IMG/VR virus record: IMGVR_UViG_2778261689_000001
Location: 1 to 64,000 of that record
DNA from: a virus
Lineage: Duplodnaviria; Heunggongvirae; Uroviricota; Caudoviricetes
Strand: one strand, 5' to 3'
DNA: 64,000 bases
A program made the translations under genes and the position numbers. The first letter of the stretch is position 1. Every line of letters begins with the position of its first letter. Of the stretch, positions 442-60,719 are shown piece by piece. Below the pieces are notes generated by a model. The model was not told where the DNA came from. It ran no database searches and saw nothing but the letters and a program-made list of their open reading frames with translations.

Positions 442-765
442 TTATCCATTTTTGCCAGCGTGTTCCGCAACATCTGTTTTACTGTTTACACAGCACTCTT
501 CACGTAAGAATTCGATGATAGCTTCCAGTATTTCGTATTGAGAGACACACATGAGCGTTCGACTCTCCCGGTTTTGTGTGACGAGCCCTACTGATACCAG
601 GGCTGAAATATGATGACTTAACGTTGATGAGGGAATGCCAAGCTGCTTTTGCAATTCACCTACAGGCAAACCTTGTTCTCCAGCTTTTACAAGATGTTTG
701 AATATGAACAAACGGGTCGGGTGACCCAGCTCTTTTAGTGCTTTAGCTACTTCTTCCAGTTGCAT
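442..765 (-). CDS. ArsR/SmtB-family HTH transcriptional regulator
   Basis: 107 aa with winged-helix segment LQKQLGIPSSTLSHHISALVSVGLV and a C-terminal Cys pair (EECCV); divergent from the adjacent permease gene. Confidence 0.7.
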   Translation of the reverse strand: MQLEEVAKALKELGHPTRLFIFKHLVKAGEQGLPVGELQKQLGIPSSTLSHHISALVSVGLVTQNRESRTLMCVSQYEILEAIIEFLREECCVNSKTDVAEHAGKNG

Positions 766-2131: not shown

Positions 2132-2445
2132 TCATGATTCTGATTGTCGGTACAGTGCCTGAATGTGGCATATCTGGGAGGTGCTGTACCCTGTTGCATC
2201 TGCCGTTTCTTTCTTGACCTGCCGGTAGTAAAGTACCTTTTGATGCCGTTCCTGAGCGACCTGTTTTCCCTGATATTTACCCAGCGTATGTGCGAGTTCA
2301 ACTCCCTGCTTTTGGCGCTGGCGGTCAATTTGCTCGACCAGCAAAATATCATTGCGGTGACTGTCCATCAGTAAGCGACCCAGTTCCGGTCGGTCAAGTT
2401 TTGTACCGCTGATATTCTCCCGGTAGTAACTGGCTATTTTATGCC
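2132..2445 (-). pseudogene. tnpR: Serine recombinase (Tn3-family resolvase) remnant, N-terminally truncated with in-frame stops and a frameshift
   Basis: Minus-strand translation gives ...ERGHKIASYYRENISGTKLDRPELGRLLMDSHRNDILLVEQIDR..., matching the resolvase catalytic-domain pattern (SG...RP.L..LL...D.L.V...DR); TAG codons interrupt the frame upstream and the reading frame shifts after IDR. Confidence 0.5.
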
Positions 2446-6445: not shown

Positions 6446-7477
6446 CTAATCGCCATCTTCCAGCAGGCGCACCATTGCCCCTGTTTCACTATCCAGGTTA
6501 CGGATATAGTTCATGACAATATTTACATTGGTCCAGCCACCAGCTTGCATGATCTCCGGTATTGAAACTCCAGCGCGGGCCATATCTCGCGCGGCTCCGA
6601 CACGGGCACTGTGTCCAGACCAGGCCAGGTATCTCTGACCAGAGTCATCCTTAGCGCCGTAAATCAATCGATGAGTTGCTTCAAAAATCCCTTCCAGGGC
6701 GCGAGTTGATAGCTGGCTGGTGGCAGATGGCGCGGCAACACCATTTTTTCTGACCCGGCAAAACAGGTAGTTATTAGGATCATCAGCTACACCAGAGACA
6801 GAAATCCATCGCTCGACCAGTTTAGTTACCCCCAGGCTAAGTGCCTTCTCTACACCTGCGGCGCTAACCAGCGTTTTCGTTCTGCCAATATGGATTAACA
6901 TTCTCCCACCGTCAGTACGTGAGATATCTTTAACCCTGATCCTGGCAATTTCTGCTATACGTAGCAGGGTATTATAAGCAATCCCAAGAAATGCCAGATT
7001 ACGTATATCCTGGCAGCGATCGCTATTTTCCATGAGTGAACGAACCTGGTCGAAATCAGTGCGTTCGAACGCCAATGCCTGTTTTGCACGCTCACCGGCA
7101 TCAACGTTTTCTTTTCGGATCCGTCGCATGACCAGTGAAACAGCATTGCTGTCACTTGGTCGTGGCAGCCCGGACCGACGATGAAGCATATTTAGCTGGC
7201 CCAAATGTTGCTGGATAGTTTTTACTGCCAGACCGCGCGCCTGAAGATATAGAAGATAATCGCGAACATCTTCAGGTTCTGCGGGAAACCATTTCCGGTT
7301 ATTCAACTTGCACCATGCCGCCCACGACCGGCAAACGGACAGAAGCATTTTCCAGGTATGCTCAGAAAACGCCTGGCGATCCCTGAACATGTCCATCAGG
7401 TTCTTGCGAACCTCATCACTCGTTGCATCGACCGGTAATGCAGGCAAATTTTGGTGTACGGTCAGTAAATTGGACAT
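6446..7477 (-). CDS. cre: Cre site-specific tyrosine recombinase (343 aa)
   Basis: Protein MSNLLTVHQNLPALPVDATSDEVRKNLMDMFRDRQAFSEHTWKMLLSVCRSWAAWCKLNNRKWFPAEPEDVRDYLLYLQARGLAVKTIQQHLGQLNMLHRRSGLPRPSDSNAVSLVMRRIRKENVDAGERAKQALAFERTDFDQVRSLMENSDRCQDIRNLAFLGIAYNTLLRIAEIARIRVKDISRTDGGRMLIHIGRTKTLVSAAGVEKALSLGVTKLVERWISVSGVADDPNNYLFCRVRKNGVAAPSATSQLSTRALEGIFEATHRLIYGAKDDSGQRYLAWSGHSARVGAARDMARAGVSIPEIMQAGGWTNVNIVMNYIRNLDSETGAMVRLLEDGD is recognisably Cre (essentially identical to the sequence as I recall it); loxP lies 420 bp upstream. Confidence 0.97.
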   Translation of the reverse strand: MSNLLTVHQNLPALPVDATSDEVRKNLMDMFRDRQAFSEHTWKMLLSVCRSWAAWCKLNNRKWFPAEPEDVRDYLLYLQARGLAVKTIQQHLGQLNMLHRRSGLPRPSDSNAVSLVMRRIRKENVDAGERAKQALAFERTDFDQVRSLMENSDRCQDIRNLAFLGIAYNTLLRIAEIARIRVKDISRTDGGRMLIHIGRTKTLVSAAGVEKALSLGVTKLVERWISVSGVADDPNNYLFCRVRKNGVAAPSATSQLSTRALEGIFEATHRLIYGAKDDSGQRYLAWSGHSARVGAARDMARAGVSIPEIMQAGGWTNVNIVMNYIRNLDSETGAMVRLLEDGD

Positions 7478-8630: not shown

Positions 8631-9482
8631 ATGATAAATTATGTCTACGGCGAACAACTGTACCAGGAGTTCGTCAGCTTCAGGGATCTCTTTCTAAAAA
8701 AAGCTGTTGCACGCGCCCAACACGTTGATACAGCCAGCGACGGTCGTCCTGTACGCCCGGTTGTCGTTCTACCGTTCAAAGAAACTGACAGCATTCAGGC
8801 TGAAATTGATAAATGGACTTTAATGGCGCGGGAACTGGAACAGTACCCAGACCTCAATATCCCAAAGACTATTTTATATCCAGTGCCTAACATCCTTCGC
8901 GGTGTGCGTAAGGTTACAACTTATCAGACAGAGGCTGTGAACAGCGTCAACATGACCGCTGGCCGCATTATTCATCTGATTGATAAGGACATTCGCATCC
9001 AAAAAAGCGCGGGGATCAATGAGCACAGTGCGAAATACATAGAGAACCTGGAAGCAACAAAAGAGCTAATGAAGCAGTACCCGGAGGATGAAAAATTCCG
9101 TATGCGCGTACACGGCTTTAGCGAAACAATGCTGCGCGTCCACTACATTTCCAGTAGCCCTAACTACAATGATGGTAAATCAGTTAGTTACCATGTGCCA
9201 CTGTGTGGCGTGTTTATCTGCGATGAAACTCTCCGTGATGGAATTATCATCAACGGTGAATTCGAAAAAGCAAAATTTAGCCTTTATGACTCCATAGAAC
9301 CGATCATCTGCGACCGCTGGCCGCAAGCAAAAATATATCGCCTGGCAGATATTGAAAATGTAAAAAAACAAATTGCCATCACTCGCGAAGAGAAAAAGGT
9401 TAAGTCAGCCGCATCAGTTACGCGCAGCCGTAAAACCAAGAAGGGGCAGCCAGTAAACGACAACCCCGAAAGCGCGCAATAA
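8631..9482 (+). CDS. c1: C1 primary immunity repressor (283 aa)
   Basis: 283 aa, starts MINYVYGEQLYQEFVSFRDLFLKK; size, N-terminus and coi-upstream/operator context match P1 C1. Confidence 0.85.
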   Translation: MINYVYGEQLYQEFVSFRDLFLKKAVARAQHVDTASDGRPVRPVVVLPFKETDSIQAEIDKWTLMARELEQYPDLNIPKTILYPVPNILRGVRKVTTYQTEAVNSVNMTAGRIIHLIDKDIRIQKSAGINEHSAKYIENLEATKELMKQYPEDEKFRMRVHGFSETMLRVHYISSSPNYNDGKSVSYHVPLCGVFICDETLRDGIIINGEFEKAKFSLYDSIEPIICDRWPQAKIYRLADIENVKKQIAITREEKKVKSAASVTRSRKTKKGQPVNDNPESAQ

Positions 9483-9485
9483 ATT

Positions 9486-9507
9486 ATGCCCGGCATCAAC
9501 CGGGCAT
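9486..9507. terminator. Bidirectional terminator hairpin between convergent c1 and ant-like genes
   Basis: ATGCCCGG-CATCAA-CCGGGCAT in the 32-bp convergent intergenic gap. Confidence 0.5.
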
Positions 9508-9514
9508 TCTTCCA

Positions 9515-10633
9515 TTATTCAGCCGCCACCGGTTTTAACAAGCCAGCATCGAGCAGTTTACGCGTCAACCACTGCTGGCCTTTACCCGTTAATTGAGGCG
9601 TCAACCGTATCTGGTAGCCATCTTCATCATCCAGCACCACTTCTTTCACCGTGAAATACCCCGCGTTGATGTACTGCTGGAACGGCACATTTTTACGTCC
9701 ACCGGACGCTATCAGGATGCCGTTCTCCCGTAACCAGACAAACAGCGCGTTTTGCTTAAGTCCAACAACCTTTGCAAAATTCCCAATCAGGATCCCTTTA
9801 GCTACTGATACCCGGTCGGCAAAATCGACCTTAGGAGCGGCGGCCACCAGCTGCTGATTTAGCTGGTGGGCTTTCTGTTCCAGAAGCTGCTTTTGTTCAG
9901 CCAGTTCGGCAGCCAGGCGTAGGGCTTCTGGTAATGTTTGGGGGATTGCAACCGGTTGCTGTTCTTTTTGCCGGAAGTAGCTGTCTTCCAGTTTTTCAAA
10001 GAATGCCCATGCCTGATCGGTTTCGAGCATTTTAGCGTGGCGGGCTGCGCCGCGTTCTGTCCAGAGGGTGAGTGAGCGAACATTGCGAGCAATTTTTACA
10101 GAGTAGTTTAAAGCTACTCTGTGCTTCAACTCGCGCAATGATTCTCCTTCAACTTTGAAAAAGTGCTTCCCTTCAACAAAGCGTACTTTGTTCTCATGAT
10201 GATTTTGGCGAATACGGATTGTTTCTGTCCCATACCCTCTAGCAAGAGTCTCGGTTGTCACTACACGCACTCCCTGCCATTCCAGAACGGGAATTTCATC
10301 AGACTGATTCTGAACAACCACCAGCTCCGATTCCTGAACTGAAGGTGCATGAATTTTTTCTGATTTAACGTTAGTTGCTTTCATTCTGTGTGCCTCCTTG
10401 CGTGCTTCGGCTGCGACGGTTGCGTAATTCAGATGACCCTGTTCGAGCAGGTATTCGCGGATATCAGACAACAGGATACGGTGAACCGCGTTCTTGTCCT
10501 TTCTCCGGTAAAGTTGTTTGGTGATCATGAAGTAGTTGGCAATAACGCCTGGTATATCCCTGGTACTGATACAGGCAGTGTGCTGTTCAATTGCCTCGAT
10601 CATCTCTTCACGGGTAACTAACGATGTTCTCAT
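9515..10633 (-). CDS. Antirepressor-like protein (372 aa): N-terminal domain paralogous to ORF 60798-61841, central Bro-N-like segment, C-terminal Ant/KilAC-type domain
   Basis: C-terminal ...IPQTLPEALRLAAELAEQKQ...KVDFADRVSVAKGILIGNFAKVVGLKQNALF...GKGQQWLTRKLLDAGLLKPVA is shared with ORFs 60798-61841 and 59833-60633; start overlaps the icd-like stop (ATGA). Confidence 0.7.
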   Translation of the reverse strand: MRTSLVTREEMIEAIEQHTACISTRDIPGVIANYFMITKQLYRRKDKNAVHRILLSDIREYLLEQGHLNYATVAAEARKEAHRMKATNVKSEKIHAPSVQESELVVVQNQSDEIPVLEWQGVRVVTTETLARGYGTETIRIRQNHHENKVRFVEGKHFFKVEGESLRELKHRVALNYSVKIARNVRSLTLWTERGAARHAKMLETDQAWAFFEKLEDSYFRQKEQQPVAIPQTLPEALRLAAELAEQKQLLEQKAHQLNQQLVAAAPKVDFADRVSVAKGILIGNFAKVVGLKQNALFVWLRENGILIASGGRKNVPFQQYINAGYFTVKEVVLDDEDGYQIRLTPQLTGKGQQWLTRKLLDAGLLKPVAAE

Positions 10634-10851
10634 AGTCCCTCCTGAGCAGAAGCGTTAACAGGGAGGCACCAGTAACTGAGAGAATTGCGTGAATCAGTGG
10701 AAAAACGGGCAGAGAAAATACATGGGGCGTCAGGAAGCTGAGAGCGGGCCTCATCTTCTGTTGGTGCAATAACGAAGTGATAGTGACGTTTTTGGCAGGA
10801 GTAAAAGCGCCAGATAAATTCAGGATGAGTTGGGGTAGGGATAGTAGCCAT
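10630..10851 (-). CDS. Icd-like small protein (73 aa)
   Basis: MATIPTPTHPEFIWRFYSCQKRHYHFVIAPTEDEARSQLPD... is paralogous to ORF 61838-62059; ATG preceded by AAGGAGG; track ORF extended to 11193 is probably over-long. Confidence 0.6.
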   Translation of the reverse strand: MATIPTPTHPEFIWRFYSCQKRHYHFVIAPTEDEARSQLPDAPCIFSARFSTDSRNSLSYWCLPVNASAQEGL

Positions 10852-10924
10852 ATTGGCAGCCTCCTTAGACGTTGGTATGTAACCACCGCAGAAGAGACCA
10901 ATCTTGCTGGCGGTGGACTGTACG

Positions 10925-11005
10925 GAGTTGGCCTTACTGGCGTCCAAGGTAACCAGCCTACCCGAAGGTAGCCCCATACAGCCCACCATTGTAGAGGTGT
11001 GCGTG
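10925..11005 (-). ncRNA. Candidate c4-like antisense RNA core (second copy)
   Basis: Segment between the operator and icd-like gene shares AACCAGC...CGAAG...CCCCA...CCCACCAT blocks with 62125-62205 but differs between them; boundaries not determined. Confidence 0.3.
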
Positions 11006-11169
11006 TACGCCGATACAAAAAAAGACGCGAGCGGCGTCTGTATCGCCTTAGACTTAAGCGGGAGGCCAATCCCGGCACCCGTTTTAATGAGGTGCCTGAT
11101 AAGCATAAACCGAAAATGCCTCAAGGCGCAAGAGGTCAGGTTCAATGTAACATCGGTAGTTAAAAAACA

Positions 11170-11186
11170 CAATTCATTAGAGCAAA
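11170..11186 (-). promoter_or_regulatory. C1 operator upstream of the second c4/icd/ant-like cassette
   Basis: CAATTCATTAGAGCAAA, 14/17 to operator consensus. Confidence 0.55.
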
Positions 11187-11189
11187 TGT

Positions 11190-12674
11190 TCATTCATTAA
11201 GCCATGCCAGAGCTTCATCAACCTGCGCTTCGTCTTCGACGCTAAGCACTTCATCCTGGGGAACATAATCCGCCAGCATAGCGAAACAATATGTATCCCA
11301 ATGGTCTGGTGAGTGCAGGTTGAGTTTTTTCTTCATATCCTCCTTACTCATCACCTTCCATTGACCTGCGGAGTTAATCCCTACAGGGATTTTCGACGCT
11401 TCCTCAATAGTTTCATTACCCTTATCCAGTCTCATACGACCAGATTTTACGGCCTCTGCGGCTTGAACATTGGCATAAGCACGTTTATCAAAGTACAGGC
11501 TCTTATCTTCACGGCTATGCATCTTTTTACCCCAGCGTATACGCTGTACGGTAATACCATAATACTCGTACATCAGATCCGCCGTTGCTTTACCCAGGCC
11601 ATCGCCGTCTATCGCTATGGTGATATTGGGGAATCGCTCAGGATTACATTCTGCGAAAATTTTGGCGGCAAGCTGCGTTTCTGTAACGTCTGTGTATTCC
11701 AGCATTCGATAGTTGATTACACGGCGTTTATTTCGCTGGCCGGACACCATCATGATATTGATAACGGACTTATCCCGTCCTGTACCACCAGCAACGTCCA
11801 CACATGCAAGCCAGCCCCATCCTTTGGCAATCTTGACTTTCCGCCGCGTCGCACGTTCAACCTCATCACGTCCAAGAAGGAAGCCATCCTGTGATTTAGG
11901 GAATAGTCCGCGTACCTTAATCATGTACATAGGGTTATCACGCCCGCCGTACTCCGCCAGCTTCATTTTGATAAATGCTGGAGTTACCAGCGGTGATTCC
12001 TCACTGTTAAGCGTGATCGCCGTATAAACGCCATCAGGGTTACCAGGACGCTTGGCCAGTTTATGGTGAGTATCGTAGAAATAGCCGCTTGGGCGTGTAG
12101 GCTGTGACAGTAATAAGATGCGGTTATCCTGTCCGGTAAGAGCACCGGTGATGATACCGAAAGCTCTATCACTGACACCGGAGGCTTCATCGATAATATA
12201 CAGAAGATGATCTGCGTGTTCACCGGCGAGAGCTTCTTCACTTCCCAGACGAAAGCCCTTCGGTACTACAGTCCATACACCTTTACCAGTAACCTCATAG
12301 AAAGCGGTTTCTGTCAGAACAAAATAATCAGCAAGCCATGGAAAACGGCTGGTGGCAGTAGCCCAGTTTATCTTGATGTACTTGAATATACCGGTCATTA
12401 CCTGCTGAATTTTGTTCGCAACGATAATGGCGCGGGCACCGGGATACATGATTATGAACAACATGATCATGATAGAAGTCATGTCTGATTTCCCGGTACC
12501 GTGACCAGACGAAACAGATGTCTTGCTACCCTGTTCCTGCACAGACTCAATAATCAGATCCTGCTGCCAGGTAGGTGTTTTGCCGAACAAAACATCAGCG
12601 GCAGCAATCCAGTCATAACGATATAGCGCCACCAGCTCGCGCCAACGTGGATCCGTTACGCAACTTCTGGCCAT
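11190..12674 (-). CDS. pacB: PacB terminase large subunit (494 aa)
   Basis: 494 aa, immediately downstream of and overlapping pacA; size and order as in P1. Confidence 0.8.
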
Positions 12675-13867
12675 TAATCATCATCCCCGTATAGCTTGCG
12701 GGTAACTTCTTCATCTTCCTCCTCGTCTTCGTCCAGGTCTTGTTCCAGCCATGGGTCGTTTGATACACCTTCAGTATCAACATCTCCATAACCGCCTGTA
12801 TCAACGATATCGGCGATTTCTTCCCTACGCTGCTCAATCCACAATGCGGCATCGGCGCGGCGGTTGGCGGCCCGTTCTCGCGCAACTTTGTCCAGATCTT
12901 CAAGAGAAGGGCCACCGACGGCTGTTTGCCTTTCCTCATCATCGGTATTGGTCTTAGGAGCACGCAGATCGGCTTTGATTTGCTCCAGCATCAGGGGCGG
13001 CACTTTTCCGCCATGCGCCTCGATGAATTCAGCTGCTTCCAGCACTGACCAGTTATTTTCACGCTTTCGTTCGTATGCCAGCTTAACAATGCCAGCTTGC
13101 CCCATAGATAAAGCGTGCTTTTCCGCCTCCCGGCTTTCTTTTCGATAGTTATTCCGGATGCTGTAAATGGTGTTGATCAGGCTGCTTATCTGCGCGGAAC
13201 AGCTGTTTAGCATGCTCGCGATACGATATTCAGGCGGAGTCCCTTCATCATCGTCTTTTTGCTGATCGCGCATTTCCTGCACCAGACGAATACACGTATC
13301 CCTGGCGTTCTCCAGCATAAGGAGATGAGAAAGAGACTTTTCCAGAAGAGTGGTTTCCAGAACATCGGCCCCGGACCGACGCAACATAGCGCGCGCGGCC
13401 TTCCGCGCTTCAACGTTATCTATCAGGTAATCGCCAGCTTCGAATTCAAAGCGTTCACCATCATCATCCAGGGTGTCGCGTTCCAGGCGATCACGTAAGG
13501 TCCGGTGGGCGCGGGTGATCACGTCATGATCATCAGAACGATCATTTATGCGCTTATTCTGGCGCTTCGCGTTCTCGACTGCGGCACTGACAACAGCATT
13601 AACTCTTTGTTTTTCAGCCATTTCAGCCACAATGTGATCACCTGCACGTTGATCATTAGCGTGATCAATGATCATGCTTTTTAGTGGTTTTCTGACAGGC
13701 TTATTTGGCTTACGGCTGTCCGCTGTTCCGGTGTCTTCTTTGAATGCACGGAGATAACGACGTGCGGTGTTTGGGTTGAGATTAAACTCGGCGGCATATT
13801 GTGCGATGGTGTAACCACCATCTCGCGCCAGGCGAGCAAAATTCTTCTTGTGATCGTCCCAGGTCAC
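12674..13867 (-). CDS. pacA: PacA terminase small/pac-recognition subunit (397 aa)
   Basis: 397 aa; contains the TGATCA-hexamer pac site internally; GTG start preceded by AAGGAAG. Confidence 0.8.
13516..13674. other. pac: pac packaging site (hexamer clusters with Dam GATC sites) inside pacA
   Basis: TGATCA/GATCAT hexamers clustered at 13516-13545 and 13635-13674, about 160 bp end to end, matching the P1 pac architecture. Confidence 0.8.
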
Positions 13868-42323: not shown

Positions 42324-42399
42324 TGGTGCCGATTAACGGACTCGAACCGCTGACATCCTGCTTACAAGGCAGGCGCTCTACCAACTGAGCTAAACCGGC
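42324..42399 (-). tRNA. tRNA-Thr (anticodon UGU)
   Basis: rc GCCGGTTTAGCTCAGTTGGTAGAGCGCCTGCCTTGTAAGCAGGATGTCAGCGGTTCGAGTCCGTTAATCGGCACCA with anticodon loop CTTGTAA. Confidence 0.85.
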
Positions 42400-42401
42400 A
42401 T

Positions 42402-42477
42402 TGGCGATGGTGGATGGATTTGAACCATCGACCCGTTGATTAACAGTCAACCGCTCTAACCGCTGAGCTACACCATC
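42402..42477 (-). tRNA. tRNA-Asn (anticodon GUU)
   Basis: rc GATGGTGTAGCTCAGCGGTTAGAGCGGTTGACTGTTAATCAACGGGTCGATGGTTCAAATCCATCCACCATCGCCA with anticodon loop CTGTTAA. Confidence 0.8.
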
Positions 42478-58324: not shown

Positions 58325-58480
58325 TTACCTTTCAGATTCGTAGGCTGTGAAGACAGTGACCTCCGTCTGGCCGGTTCGGATTCGTACCTCGCAGAGGTCT
58401 TTCCTCGTTACCAGTGCCGTCACAATGACGGTTAAACAGATGACGATCAGAGCGATTAACATCGCTTTTTGCTGCTTCAT
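58325..58480 (-). CDS. hok: Hok/Gef-family type I toxin (51 aa); not in ORF track
   Basis: Manual translation MKQQKAMLIALIVICLTVIVTALVTRKDLCEVRIRTGQTEVTVFTAYESER aligns with Hok (...LTRKSLCEIRYRDG.REVAAFMAYES); ATG preceded by AAGGAGAAG. Confidence 0.75.
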   Translation of the reverse strand: MKQQKAMLIALIVICLTVIVTALVTRKDLCEVRIRTGQTEVTVFTAYESER

Positions 58481-58538
58481 AGCCTGCTTCTCCTTGACCT
58501 TTTGGTCGGTAAGAGGCTAATCTACGTATGCTAAGCAT
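58332..58538 (-). CDS. mok: mok-like overlapping reading frame
   Basis: 68-aa ORF overlapping hok in another frame and starting upstream of it, as in hok/mok/sok loci. Confidence 0.45.
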   Translation of the reverse strand: MLSIRRLASYRPKGQGEAGYEAAKSDVNRSDRHLFNRHCDGTGNEERPLRGTNPNRPDGGHCLHSLRI

Positions 58539-58600
58539 AGATATGGCCTCAGATTAATGTTAAGCGTCTTGCAGGACGCGTAATGTTATCTGGGGCTTTC
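58494..58600 (+). ncRNA. Candidate Sok-like antisense RNA with its promoter
   Basis: TTGACC (58494-58499) with TAATCT 18 bp downstream, reading antisense to the mok/hok leader; boundaries not determined. Confidence 0.3.
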
Positions 58601-58661
58601 TTCTATCTGCTTTTCGGGTAATGCCTGAAGCAGATAGCCTCAAGCACCCGCAACGATTGTA

Positions 58662-58957: not shown

Positions 58958-59803
58958 TCACCCTCTGAATCCTGCCGGTATACCCCATTGTTCGTTATCT
59001 TTATTTTTGGCTAAAACCGCATTAAGAGCTTCGTTTACCGTCATGCAATGCGGCAGATTATCGAAGTTTGATACCCCGCCAATATCAGGAGAACGCTTGT
59101 TCTTCAGGTAAGCATATTTCCGCGCTGCCGCCTCTACCTTCTGCTTGAACTCATGTTTTTGAGTGCGTTTTTTGGATAACCGCAGATTGTCAGCCTTTGC
59201 TTTTGCCTCAGCGATCCATGAAGTCAATTTTTTGAGTCTGGTCGTTCCGGCACCGCCGGAAACTGATCTTTTTGTTTTTTTAACTTGTGACTTCTTATTC
59301 TTTATTGCCACGTCATCCTGACAGGGGGAGGGGGTATCATTTTGACATGGGGGTGTGGATAAAAAATTAAATAAAGCCAATGTCTTAGCGAGAACAGCTT
59401 TAACCTTGGTTGCCGCTGAAGAGATCTTTAATTTGCTTTCAATCAGCGCATTTTTGGCTTGTTGTGCGAAGGCCAAAAAGGATGGTGTAAACCGGTACAG
59501 GTTAGCGCGACGTTCACGGTGATCGCCGATAACAATCTCTACAGACAGAATTCCTTTGTTTACAGCTTCACGGAATGCACGAACGACGGTTGATTGGCTA
59601 TAACCAGTTTCTGCCGCGATCAGGCGGTGAGGCTTGTGAATGAAGTATTCACTGGTTGTTGCCGCGAGATTTGCACATTGCGACAGGATATGCCCGGCGC
59701 TACGGGATAGACCGGAGTGTGTTACAAAGCAGGCCAATTCATAGCCAGAAAAAGTAAAATCGCTCATCGTTATACAGCTCAGGAAAGTGACTTTAGCCAG
59801 CAT
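58958..59803 (-). CDS. repL: RepL lytic-replicon initiator (281 aa)
   Basis: 281 aa, downstream of the kilA-like gene in an operator-controlled operon, as for P1 kilA-repL. Confidence 0.7.
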   Translation of the reverse strand: MLAKVTFLSCITMSDFTFSGYELACFVTHSGLSRSAGHILSQCANLAATTSEYFIHKPHRLIAAETGYSQSTVVRAFREAVNKGILSVEIVIGDHRERRANLYRFTPSFLAFAQQAKNALIESKLKISSAATKVKAVLAKTLALFNFLSTPPCQNDTPSPCQDDVAIKNKKSQVKKTKRSVSGGAGTTRLKKLTSWIAEAKAKADNLRLSKKRTQKHEFKQKVEAAARKYAYLKNKRSPDIGGVSNFDNLPHCMTVNEALNAVLAKNKDNEQWGIPAGFRG

Positions 59804-59832: not shown

Positions 59833-60633
59833 TTAGCGCGTTGCCGCGACAGGTACCAGCACACCAGCATCAAGCAATCGCTTCATCAGCCACTGCTGAC
59901 CTTTGCCGGTTATACGAGTCGTGAAAGAAATCCTGCTTCCATTGCTTGTATCGATCACGGTTTCTTTAAGGGTGAAATACCCACGGGATATGTATTCTTG
60001 TTTGGGGACGTTCCTGCGTTCACCGGTTGCGATCAGAATTCCGTTATCACGCAACCAGGTGAAGAGATAGTTTTGGCCCAGGCCGAGCACTTTGGCATAG
60101 TTGCCGATTAGAACCCCGCTGGCGGTAGCAACGCGTTCGGCGAATTCGACTTTAGGTGCATCCATCAGCATTTTTTGCTCCAGCCGTTGCTTTTGCTCTG
60201 CCAGGTCAGCAGCCAAACGGAGAGCTTCTGGGAGGCTCTTCGGAATAGCAGGTTGTAATCTTCCGGCTCGATAGTCGATAAATGTCTGGTTTACCTTCAG
60301 CCGAAACGCGGGAGAAATCCAGCCTGCGTACTCCACTGCGAGCAATTCATGGGCAAAAGTGCCGCCGCCACGGCCTTCGAACGAAACTATGCAATTCTGC
60401 ATAGTTTCTTTTTCAAGCTCTTCGATGAGCTGTTTGGCTGACAGCGTTCTTAGCCATTGAGCTGGCGCTTTATGGGCACCGAGTCCGCTCGCTCTGTGTA
60501 GAGCATTAAGGTTGTAACGGCCAGCGCGGTCGGTCGTAATTTCAACACCACAAATAACGGGCAGAGTGGTTGAAGGATCGACATTTTGATGAAGGTTTGA
60601 TATATTCATATCCGCATTGAATGTTTGTTGCAT
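59833..60633 (-). CDS. kilA: KilA-like protein (KilA-N domain plus Ant-type C-terminal domain, 266 aa)
   Basis: N-terminal KilA-N-like region; C-terminal LPEALRLAADLAEQKQ...GILIATGERRNVP...GKGQQWLMKRLLDAGVL shared with the two Ant-like proteins. Confidence 0.65.
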   Translation of the reverse strand: MQQTFNADMNISNLHQNVDPSTTLPVICGVEITTDRAGRYNLNALHRASGLGAHKAPAQWLRTLSAKQLIEELEKETMQNCIVSFEGRGGGTFAHELLAVEYAGWISPAFRLKVNQTFIDYRAGRLQPAIPKSLPEALRLAADLAEQKQRLEQKMLMDAPKVEFAERVATASGVLIGNYAKVLGLGQNYLFTWLRDNGILIATGERRNVPKQEYISRGYFTLKETVIDTSNGSRISFTTRITGKGQQWLMKRLLDAGVLVPVAATR

Positions 60634-60702: not shown

Positions 60703-60719
60703 AAATTTATTAGAGCAAA
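60703..60719 (-). promoter_or_regulatory. C1 operator upstream of kilA-repL
   Basis: AAATTTATTAGAGCAAA, 16/17 to consensus. Confidence 0.7.

Follow-up and report, generated by a model that had tools for sequence, protein, structure and literature searches.

P1-like phage-plasmids often carry resistance genes in Escherichia coli and Salmonella, and coexistence, exclusion, and induction among such elements depend on their immunity systems. Antisense RNAs of the C4 family are excised by RNase P from a longer precursor and repress ant in trans; in phages P1 and P7, pairing of C4 at the sites a2 and b2 stops translation of icd and hence expression of ant, and in P1 Rho-dependent polarity also links the block of icd to ant. 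The recognition segments a' and b' differ between P1 and P7, and the two phages are heteroimmune. Here we describe a second cassette of this immI type, located between pacB and c1, in a stretch of 64,000 nucleotides (positions 1 to 64,000 of IMG/VR record IMGVR_UViG_2778261689_000001), which we call the window and which belongs to a P1-like phage-plasmid as judged from its genes for Cre (6446-7477), C1 (8631-9482), PacB (11190-12674), and PacA (12674-13867). From the comparisons described below we conclude that this cassette (cassette 2) is probably a complete and functional second immI-type module, with an antirepressor switch orthogonal to that of the canonical immI region in the same window.

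A related arrangement has been studied in Gifsy-1, where part of the IsrK transcripts pass a terminator into orf45-anrP, an ~80-nt RNA complementary to IsrK (STnc1160) is processed from the read-through transcript, and translation of the antirepressor increases ~140-fold with IsrK in trans (Hershko-Shalev et al. 2016; PMC4825925). Hfq binding by IsrK and its trans activation of the downstream antirepressor have been shown for Gifsy-1 only, and the locus was likened by its authors to the SeqA/CI system of phage P4 (PMC4825925). As to the pacB/c1 position itself, a cassette was mentioned by Venturini et al. 2019, along with RCS47 (PMC6906374), and a second c4/icd region has been reported for a D6-like plasmid (PMC6799933); our literature search, which did not extend to the RCS47 and D6 genome papers, found no paper in which the RNAs of the pacB/c1 cassette or its specificity are analyzed.

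The genes pacB and c1 are convergent, and their stop codons lie 24 bp apart in P1 and likewise in P7, as opposed to 1,707 bp in the window. The insert is flanked by the c1 stop (9480-9482) and the pacB stop (11190-11192); homology to P1 ended within both stop codons in the junction comparison, indicating that the spacer was cleanly replaced by 9483-11189, and in megablast searches P1 and P7 matched only the flanks. The original prediction had placed here a second operator - c4-like - icd-like - ant-like unit, absent from this position in P1, and a canonical operator - c4 - icd - ant - operator - kilA - repL order at the far end of the window. All of the listed elements were present, the canonical order was real, and the junction was empty in both P1 and P7. 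The features of the insert are as follows.

9483-11189, minus strand: whole insert, from junction comparison with P1, P7, and RCS47
11170-11186, minus strand: C1-operator-like site TTTGCTCTAATGAATTG, a 14/17 match to ATTGCTCTAATAAATTT, aligned with Oc4/Op51 of P1
11144-11172, minus strand: putative upstream promoter, TTGTGT (11172-11167), 17 nt, TACATT (11149-11144), at the position homologous to P1 P2c4 (P51a)
11102-11131, minus strand: putative downstream promoter, TTGCGC (11131-11126), 18 nt, TATGCT (11107-11102), at the position homologous to P1 P1c4 (P51b)
11018-11095, minus strand: IsrK-type leader RNA (Rfam RF01394)
11063-11069, minus strand: a1 UUGGCCU, in a hairpin loop within the leader
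11046-11053, minus strand: b1 GUCUAAGG, within the leader
11023-11039, minus strand: stem of the intrinsic terminator of the leader, followed by a T7 run (terminator scan and fold)
10906-10993, minus strand: C4-2 antisense RNA (Rfam RF01695)
10942-10949, minus strand: b' CCUUGGAC of C4-2, in the second hairpin
10928-10934, minus strand: a' AGGCCAA of C4-2, single-stranded
10860-10901, minus strand: target region in the icd-2 leader, from sequence, duplex energies, and covariation
10895-10901, minus strand: a2 UUGGUCU
10863-10870, minus strand: b2 GUCUAAGG, overlapping the Shine-Dalgarno sequence
10630-10851, minus strand: icd-like gene (Icd-2, 73 aa)
9515-10633, minus strand: ant-like gene (Ant-2, 372 aa)
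9486-9507, no strand assigned: hairpin ATGCCCGG-N6-CCGGGCAT between the convergent ant-2 and c1 genes (terminator scan and junction comparison), a probable bidirectional terminator that arrived with the insert

Two RNA families were recognized upstream of icd-2. The leader matched the isrK family over model positions 1-77 with 60.8 bits (gathering score 50), and C4-2 matched the full-length C4 model (1-87) with 75.9 bits (gathering score 45), more than the 69.6 bits of the canonical copy. Between b1 and C4 lies a terminator of the Rho-independent type, with a GC-rich stem of 6 bp ahead of the T7 run. Upstream of C4 in cassette 2 there was no match to the c4-a1b1 family (RF03163) that marks the canonical leader; the only RF03163 match in the window was at 62261-62313. 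C4-2 is predicted to fold with a minimum free energy (MFE) of −41.6 kcal/mol (z = −3.5) into the architecture of the family, with a closing stem of 17 bp, a UUCG hairpin followed by one that displays b', and a' left single-stranded, and 11 of the 23 C4 stem pairs showed compensatory double changes among 10 sequences of three scaffolds. MAFFT set hairpin 2 of the P1 type off by one column relative to the other scaffolds; therefore, we relied on the Rfam matches and fixed positions. The a' and b' segments were extracted by fixed columns; for scaffold B, MFE folds predict extra pairs inside the loop. We also observed that the 3' end of C4-2 (10906-10911) carries G-CCA straight after the closing stem, resembling a tRNA discriminator base and CCA, at the position where the P1-type C4 has A-CCU; this end could be suited to recognition by RNase P.

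The protein genes follow the P1 layout. Icd-2 matched the NCBIfam family phage_ICD_like and was 79% identical to the canonical Icd-1 over 63 aa, and its stop codon overlaps the ant-2 start (ATGA), as in P1. Ant-2 was 57% identical to Ant1 overall by BLASTP, with clearly related N-terminal (84 aa) and C-terminal parts and a different middle; thus, the paralogy claimed earlier for the Icd proteins and for the Ant N- and C-terminal domains was borne out. The C-terminal third, estimated from the alignment to be ~90% identical to Ant1, contains KilAC (Pfam PF03374, E = 4e-31), and the Ant1-like N-terminus is followed by an ORF6N domain (PF10543) that Ant1 lacks, so that the central domain is not shared. 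Codon 84 of Ant-2 is an in-frame ATG (~10382-10384) preceded by AAGGAGG, a nested Ant2-like start in a layout identical to that of the annotated P1 ant2.

A scan for C1 operators found 14 sites with at most three mismatches in the window, compared to 0.34 expected by chance, and several known P1 operators are themselves among the three-mismatch sites. The operator-like site of cassette 2 keeps the TTGCTCTAAT core and matches 14 of the 17 consensus positions at the Oc4 position, next to weak promoter hexamers; at the pacB/c1 site of other elements the variants TTTGCTCTAATAAATTG (36 loci) and CTTGCTCTAATAAATTG (16 loci) were found. Both promoters were assigned solely by their position in the alignment with the annotated P1 immI. 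The −35 hexamer of the putative upstream promoter overlaps the operator-like site, as in P1 P2c4, and the putative downstream promoter ends 6 nt before the IsrK 5' end.

Comparison of the recognition sites required the canonical immI block, which comprises the following.

62374-62390, minus strand: operator, from the operator scan
62261-62313, minus strand: a1b1 leader (Rfam c4-a1b1, RF03163)
62107-62192, minus strand: C4 RNA (C4-1; Rfam, 69.6 bits), of P7-type specificity
62143-62149, minus strand: b' CACAAUC
62130-62136, minus strand: a' CUGCUAA
61838-62059, minus strand: icd (Icd-1)
60798-61841, minus strand: ant1
60703-60719, minus strand: second operator, between ant1 and kilA
59833-60633, minus strand: kilA
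58958-59803, minus strand: repL

The two recognition codes are:

Cassette 2: a' AGGCCAA; b' CCUUGGAC; a1 UUGGCCU; a2 UUGGUCU (one G.U); b1/b2 GUCUAAGG (one G.U)
Canonical immI (C4-1): a' CUGCUAA; b' CACAAUC; a1 UUAGCAG; a2 UUAGCAG; b1/b2 GAUUGUG

The code of C4-1 is identical to that of P7 and unlike that of P1 (CUGUCAA, CACUAAC). For C4-2, a' would form 7 bp with a2, and b' 8 bp with b2, with one G.U in each; b2 overlaps the Shine-Dalgarno sequence AAGGAGG (10860-10866), which lies 8 nt ahead of the icd-2 ATG. Within the window GTCTAAGG occurred only at b1 and b2, and GUCUAAGG at no other place in the 64 kb. When duplex energies were calculated as the sum for the b' loop and the a' segment, C4-2 gave −22 and −23 kcal/mol with its own downstream and upstream leaders and −14 kcal/mol with the immI leaders; C4-1 gave −20 and −17 kcal/mol with its own downstream and upstream leaders and −10 kcal/mol with those of cassette 2. 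Extended to a 10 × 10 matrix of alleles, the calculation returned the own leader as the best partner for every C4.

These pairings were also tested by covariation in an alignment of eight alleles drawn from P1-like elements and Stx phages. The a' and b' segments paired with a2 and b2, and with a1 and b1, in all 120 of the 120 cells, and double-sided changes were present in 9 of the 15 recognition pairs (30 cells, relative to ~9 in shuffles). None of 500 shuffles reached the observed covariation score, and sliding the partner by 1-3 columns reduced pairing to 21-53%. This covariation of a' and b' with both a1/b1 and a2/b2 across alleles strongly indicates that selection acts on the pairings and that each allele is a specificity of its own; in its a'/b' code, C4-2 is orthogonal to the resident immI, whose code is of the P7 type. 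The parts of cassette 2, their order and family membership, and the pairing and covariation of its sites are direct observations. Folding and pairing, suggested earlier as a check, showed that C4-2 takes the family fold and that each C4 pairs best with its own leader. The c4 cores indicated by the original prediction (10925-11005 and 62125-62205) were indeed C4 RNAs, their ends displaced by ~12-19 nt from the Rfam matches, and the differences that it noted between them, as for different antisense targets, correspond to the differing a' and b'. The second immunity specificity that it suggested is supported by sequence, in the form of distinct, covarying codes; the novelty that it implied did not hold up, as the insertion is common and is in the literature (PMC6906374).

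To place cassette 2 among its relatives we searched IMG/VR with Icd-2, which yielded 79 loci with 70 distinct upstream regions; the same search of genome contigs gave three loci only. Three C4 scaffolds were distinguished among the Icd-2 loci.

Scaffold A: P1 immI type; two a' alleles and at least five b' alleles
Scaffold B: RCS47 cassette and also phage D6 immI; two a' and two b' alleles, with all four combinations seen
Scaffold C: this window; one a' and one b', a single allele at ~26 loci

Stx phages have a scaffold-C-like C4 with three further a' alleles, and in every allele seen a1 and a2 matched a' while b1 and b2 matched b'. The insertion was found at the same point in phages RCS47, JL22, and vB_EcoM-673R5, and the cassette in at least 268 PLSDB plasmids (at least 80% coverage), many of the records being 99-100% identical. 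Among 703 plasmids that matched the empty P1 junction, the junction was contiguous in 314 and split in ~280, from which we estimate that about 40% of P1-like plasmids are occupied at the pacB/c1 site. The scaffold-C leader occurred in 131 of 5,426 complete E. coli genomes.

These relatives point to a mixed ancestry. The 92-nt operator/promoter stretch was 96-100% conserved across scaffolds B and C. In many Stx phages the Rha/antirepressor genes are preceded by modules to which the leader and C4 of cassette 2 were ~79% identical, some of these phages already having "isrK" and "C4" annotations, and the first ten Icd-2 codons matched the start of Stx-phage antirepressor genes; the Rfam isrK family was also matched in RCS47, D6, and Stx phage F039. 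Exchange between pacB/c1 and canonical immI was apparent for both Ant middle domains and leaders. The ORF6N-type Ant occurred next to kilA at immI and Ant1-type middles at pacB/c1, so that both types were found at both sites, which suggests that the two Ants may be interchangeable. As judged from these matches, cassette 2 is a mosaic in which a lambdoid-type leader appears to have been joined to a P1-type icd/ant. A plain tandem-type duplication of immI was rejected, as cassette 2 has a different Ant middle domain, a leader of the isrK type, and a C4 scaffold of the isrK/Stx-phage type; its icd and ant are P1-like, but the cassette as a whole is no simple copy of immI.

Several individual loci deserve mention. 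In phage D6 (L088, 2544-2811) the immI C4 scaffold and its a'/b' (GUCUCAA, CCUUUUGC) are those of the commonest RCS47-type pacB/c1 cassette (L045-type), a code identity that predicts cross-immunity between otherwise distant plasmid prophages. IMGVR_UViG_651053023_000001 (L070) has two divergent P1-type C4 cassettes, at 502-587 (minus strand) and 2341-2426 (plus strand), ~1.7 kb apart, with b' CAUGUAC in one and CGUAAGU in the other and matching b1/b2 in each. IMGVR_UViG_2648501186_000003 (L015 and L072) has a pacB/c1 cassette plus a P1-type cassette ~6 kb away on the cre side; an extra cassette was likewise present in IMGVR_UViG_2698536372_000019 (L010, L076, L081), a contig that contains Ns and may be misassembled. 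A third insertion site on the cre side is suggested, which may be compared with RD-1 of pSvP1 (PMC6906374). One relative (L022, 3584-3700) has an IS element, seen as an Rfam ALIL frameshift pseudoknot, inserted within its cassette, and the annotation of NZ_CP059910.1 (L096) lists the ORF6N ant gene as a truncated pseudogene.

We propose that cassette 2 acts as follows. Transcription would start just beyond the pacB stop, from a promoter that the C1-operator-like site overlaps and from another one closer to the leader. Most transcripts would stop at the intrinsic terminator, giving an IsrK-like RNA of ~78 nt with the decoy sites a1 and b1, and read-through transcripts would hold the C4 RNA, presumably excised as in P1. 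The loop segment b' and the single-stranded a' of C4-2 would then pair with b2 and a2 in the icd-2 leader, where b2 covers the Shine-Dalgarno sequence, and this pairing would block translation of icd-2 and, through the ATGA coupling, synthesis of the nested Ant1/Ant2-like antirepressors. By analogy with Gifsy-1, the IsrK-like RNA, when abundant, may relieve repression by C4. Because the code of C4-2 is orthogonal to that of immI, the prophage would need both C4 RNAs to silence both antirepressors. A two-cassette lysogen would silence an incoming ant of either code and so be immune to phages of either specificity; conversely, an infecting two-cassette phage would derepress, or escape, lysogens that do not have C4-2.

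Several points weigh against this proposal. The operator-like site of cassette 2 has three mismatches, one more than in most relatives, and neither putative promoter was called by a generic promoter scan, both being weak matches to the consensus. One G.U pair is present in a2 and one in b1/b2. The middle domain of Ant-2 is unlike that of Ant1, and its target could differ. For Gifsy-1 itself the authors favor structural switching in cis over repression in trans by a processed C4 (PMC4825925). Finally, what we infer about promoter use, processing, repression, C1 as the target of Ant-2, and the immunity phenotype is based on sequence. In its favor, the open reading frames (ORFs) of cassette 2 are intact, and the cassette is conserved in the plasmids noted above and in three sequenced phages.

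The likeliest alternative, although we consider it improbable, is that Ant-2 is regulated as described and targets the repressor of another resident element, such as a lambdoid or D6-like prophage, instead of P1 C1, making the module one for cross-induction or inter-prophage competition rather than for P1 immunity. Such a role would fit the ~79% identity of the leader and C4 scaffold to modules before the Stx-phage Rha/antirepressor genes, the ORF6N domain, the presence of the D6 immI a'/b' in the commonest scaffold-B allele at pacB/c1, and the reported action of Gifsy antirepressors on prophage repressors (PMC4825925). However, Ant-2 has the nested Ant2 start in common with P1 Ant1/2, as well as the N-terminal 84 aa and the C-terminal third (~90% identical), a C1-operator-like site lies ahead of the cassette, and the exchange of middle domains runs both ways, with ORF6N-type Ant at the canonical immI by kilA and Ant1-type middles at pacB/c1.

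We regard as very improbable the view that cassette 2 has no regulatory role today and is an inert or decaying passenger, left as a scar of recombination in an intergenic site that tolerates insertions. Three-way covariation of a'/a1/a2 and of b'/b1/b2 needs selection on pairing, every ORF is intact here, and many records are 99-100% identical; moreover, an unrepressed antirepressor would be harmful to lysogeny, and therefore the controls must work for the plasmid to persist. These arguments prevail, in our view, over the more degenerate operator variant of the window relative to most relatives, the IS insertions or truncated ant genes in some relatives' cassettes, and the absence of the cassette from about half of the P1-like plasmids.

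Scarcely credible is the remaining alternative, that, in place of two RNAs and a 73-aa Icd, 10630-11193 (minus strand) codes for an Icd extended at its N-terminus, an "Ash family" protein of 187 aa: the icd-2 frame is open from an ATG at 11193 to 10630, its translation matches Pfam Phage_ASH (PF10554) with E = 2.3e-11, and PGAP/RefSeq label the region "ash family protein", but the ORF would cross an intrinsic terminator and a highly structured RNA, all three frames have stops in RCS47-type alleles, F039, and VT2phi_272 (one frame is open in Ss-VASD), the variation obeys base-pairing and not codon rules, PGAP flags the feature as an incomplete pseudogene, and a strong Shine-Dalgarno sequence lies 8 nt ahead of the short icd start. 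NCBIfam gave no match for the overlapping ORFs. We rejected the "Ash" label, which comes from the PF10554 match of the extended icd frame, as a protein assignment; since most relatives have stops in all frames there, the Phage_ASH family probably captures a translated RNA gene. In practical terms, two RNA genes are publicly annotated as an "ash family protein" pseudogene.

The preferred reading, a second immI-type module with its own code, does not make the insertion itself new, as it is present in RCS47, JL22, vB_EcoM-673R5, and the PLSDB plasmids as well as in the literature, and is composed of known families (C4, IsrK, Icd, and Ant/KilAC) at a known hot spot. The present analysis contributes the isrK-type leader and mosaic origin of the cassette, the orthogonality of its code to that of immI, and the combinatorial picture of the alleles. 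If cassette 2 works as proposed, immunity type would be set by a stack of orthogonal antisense codes and not by c1 plus one c4, the codes would recombine freely, Stx phages and D6-like plasmids included, and a predictor of heteroimmunity could be read from sequence.

A broader idea, which we offer tentatively as somewhat short of an even chance, is that C4-type modules form a combinatorial two-site barcode (a' × b'), with P1-like phage-plasmids stacking two or three orthogonal cassettes at hot spots. The alleles now number at least 2 × 5 on the P1 scaffold, 2 × 2 on the RCS47/D6 scaffold, and at least four a' on the Stx/scaffold-C type. Were this true, the barcode would determine which co-resident prophages, whether P1-like, D6-like, or lambdoid, can induce or exclude one another, the IsrK-type leader would be a built-in anti-antisense decoy, and stacking would be an arms-race device that broadens an element's own immunity and defeats that of its single-cassette relatives.

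Other observations concern the remainder of the window and the canonical leader. The P1/P7-type a1b1 leader also ends in a hairpin and U-run (CCGCAGAUAUCCGAUAUUGCGG UAUUUUUGUG; 62225-62250, minus strand, in the window, and ~1480-1515 in L004), which aligns with the IsrK terminator of cassette 2; because of this alignment, the canonical immI may also make a short a1b1 RNA. Just past repL, a sok antitoxin RNA (Rfam, 114.9 bits; 58475-58649, minus strand) and a 51-aa Hok-like ORF (58325-58480) make up an addiction module of the hok/sok type (58325-58649, minus strand). Rfam also detected three tRNA genes (40615-40687, 42327-42399, and 42405-42477, minus strand), as expected in a P1-like genome.

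Collinearity with the closest known system was judged by alignment of cassette 2 with the fully annotated P1 immI, and every element had a counterpart. Cassette 2 shares with P1/P7 immI the order of parts (Oc4/Op51 - a1 b1 - c4 - a2 b2 - icd - ant1/ant2) and the C4 fold, two-site recognition by a' and b' with b2 over the icd ribosome-binding site, the icd/ant ATGA overlap, the Ant2 start nested at codon 84, the ~90%-identical KilAC C-terminus, and a C1 operator (operator-like in cassette 2) over the upstream −35. It differs in its location at pacB/c1 instead of beside kilA-repL, in a leader of the isrK type rather than c4-a1b1 with a strong intrinsic terminator between b1 and C4, in its C4 stem scaffold, orthogonal a'/b' code, and ORF6N Ant middle, and in the first 10 Icd codons, which appear to derive from a lambdoid module. 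In RCS47, JL22, and pTZ20_1P (PMC6906374) the cassette sits at this same point, its operator/promoter stretch is 96-100% identical, and it likewise combines an isrK-type leader with icd and an ant of the ORF6N type. The C4 scaffold of RCS47-type elements, however, is B, where GUCUCAA and GUUCCAA are the a' alleles, CCUUUGAC and CCUUUUGC are the b' alleles, and all four combinations are found. Phage P4 immunity (CI RNA, seqA/seqC), likened here by description alone, also uses a processed small RNA with complementary sites on both sides to control downstream genes (PMC4825925); in contrast to cassette 2, it acts by transcription termination on replication genes and involves no antirepressor.

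The leader of cassette 2 is closer to the isrK-C4 modules of Gifsy-1 and of Stx phages than to P1 immI. Common to these modules are an isrK leader with a terminator, a C4-family RNA of ~88 nt, and an antirepressor gene whose ribosome-binding site is complementary to the RNA; the Stx-phage modules (F039, P13374, VT2phi_272, and Ss-VASD) add ~79% nucleotide identity of the leader and the same C4 stem scaffold, and the link to isrK - orf45/STnc1160 - anrP of Gifsy-1 was made through the Rfam family and the published description rather than the Gifsy-1 sequence (PMC4825925). The Stx and Gifsy-1 modules run directly into the antirepressor gene and have other a' and b' alleles, whereas cassette 2 has icd in between and a P1 Ant-like antirepressor, and lies in a P1-like plasmid prophage under a C1-operator-like site. 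Cassette 2 thereby connects the experimentally studied IsrK system of Gifsy-1 with the classical C4 mechanism of P1.

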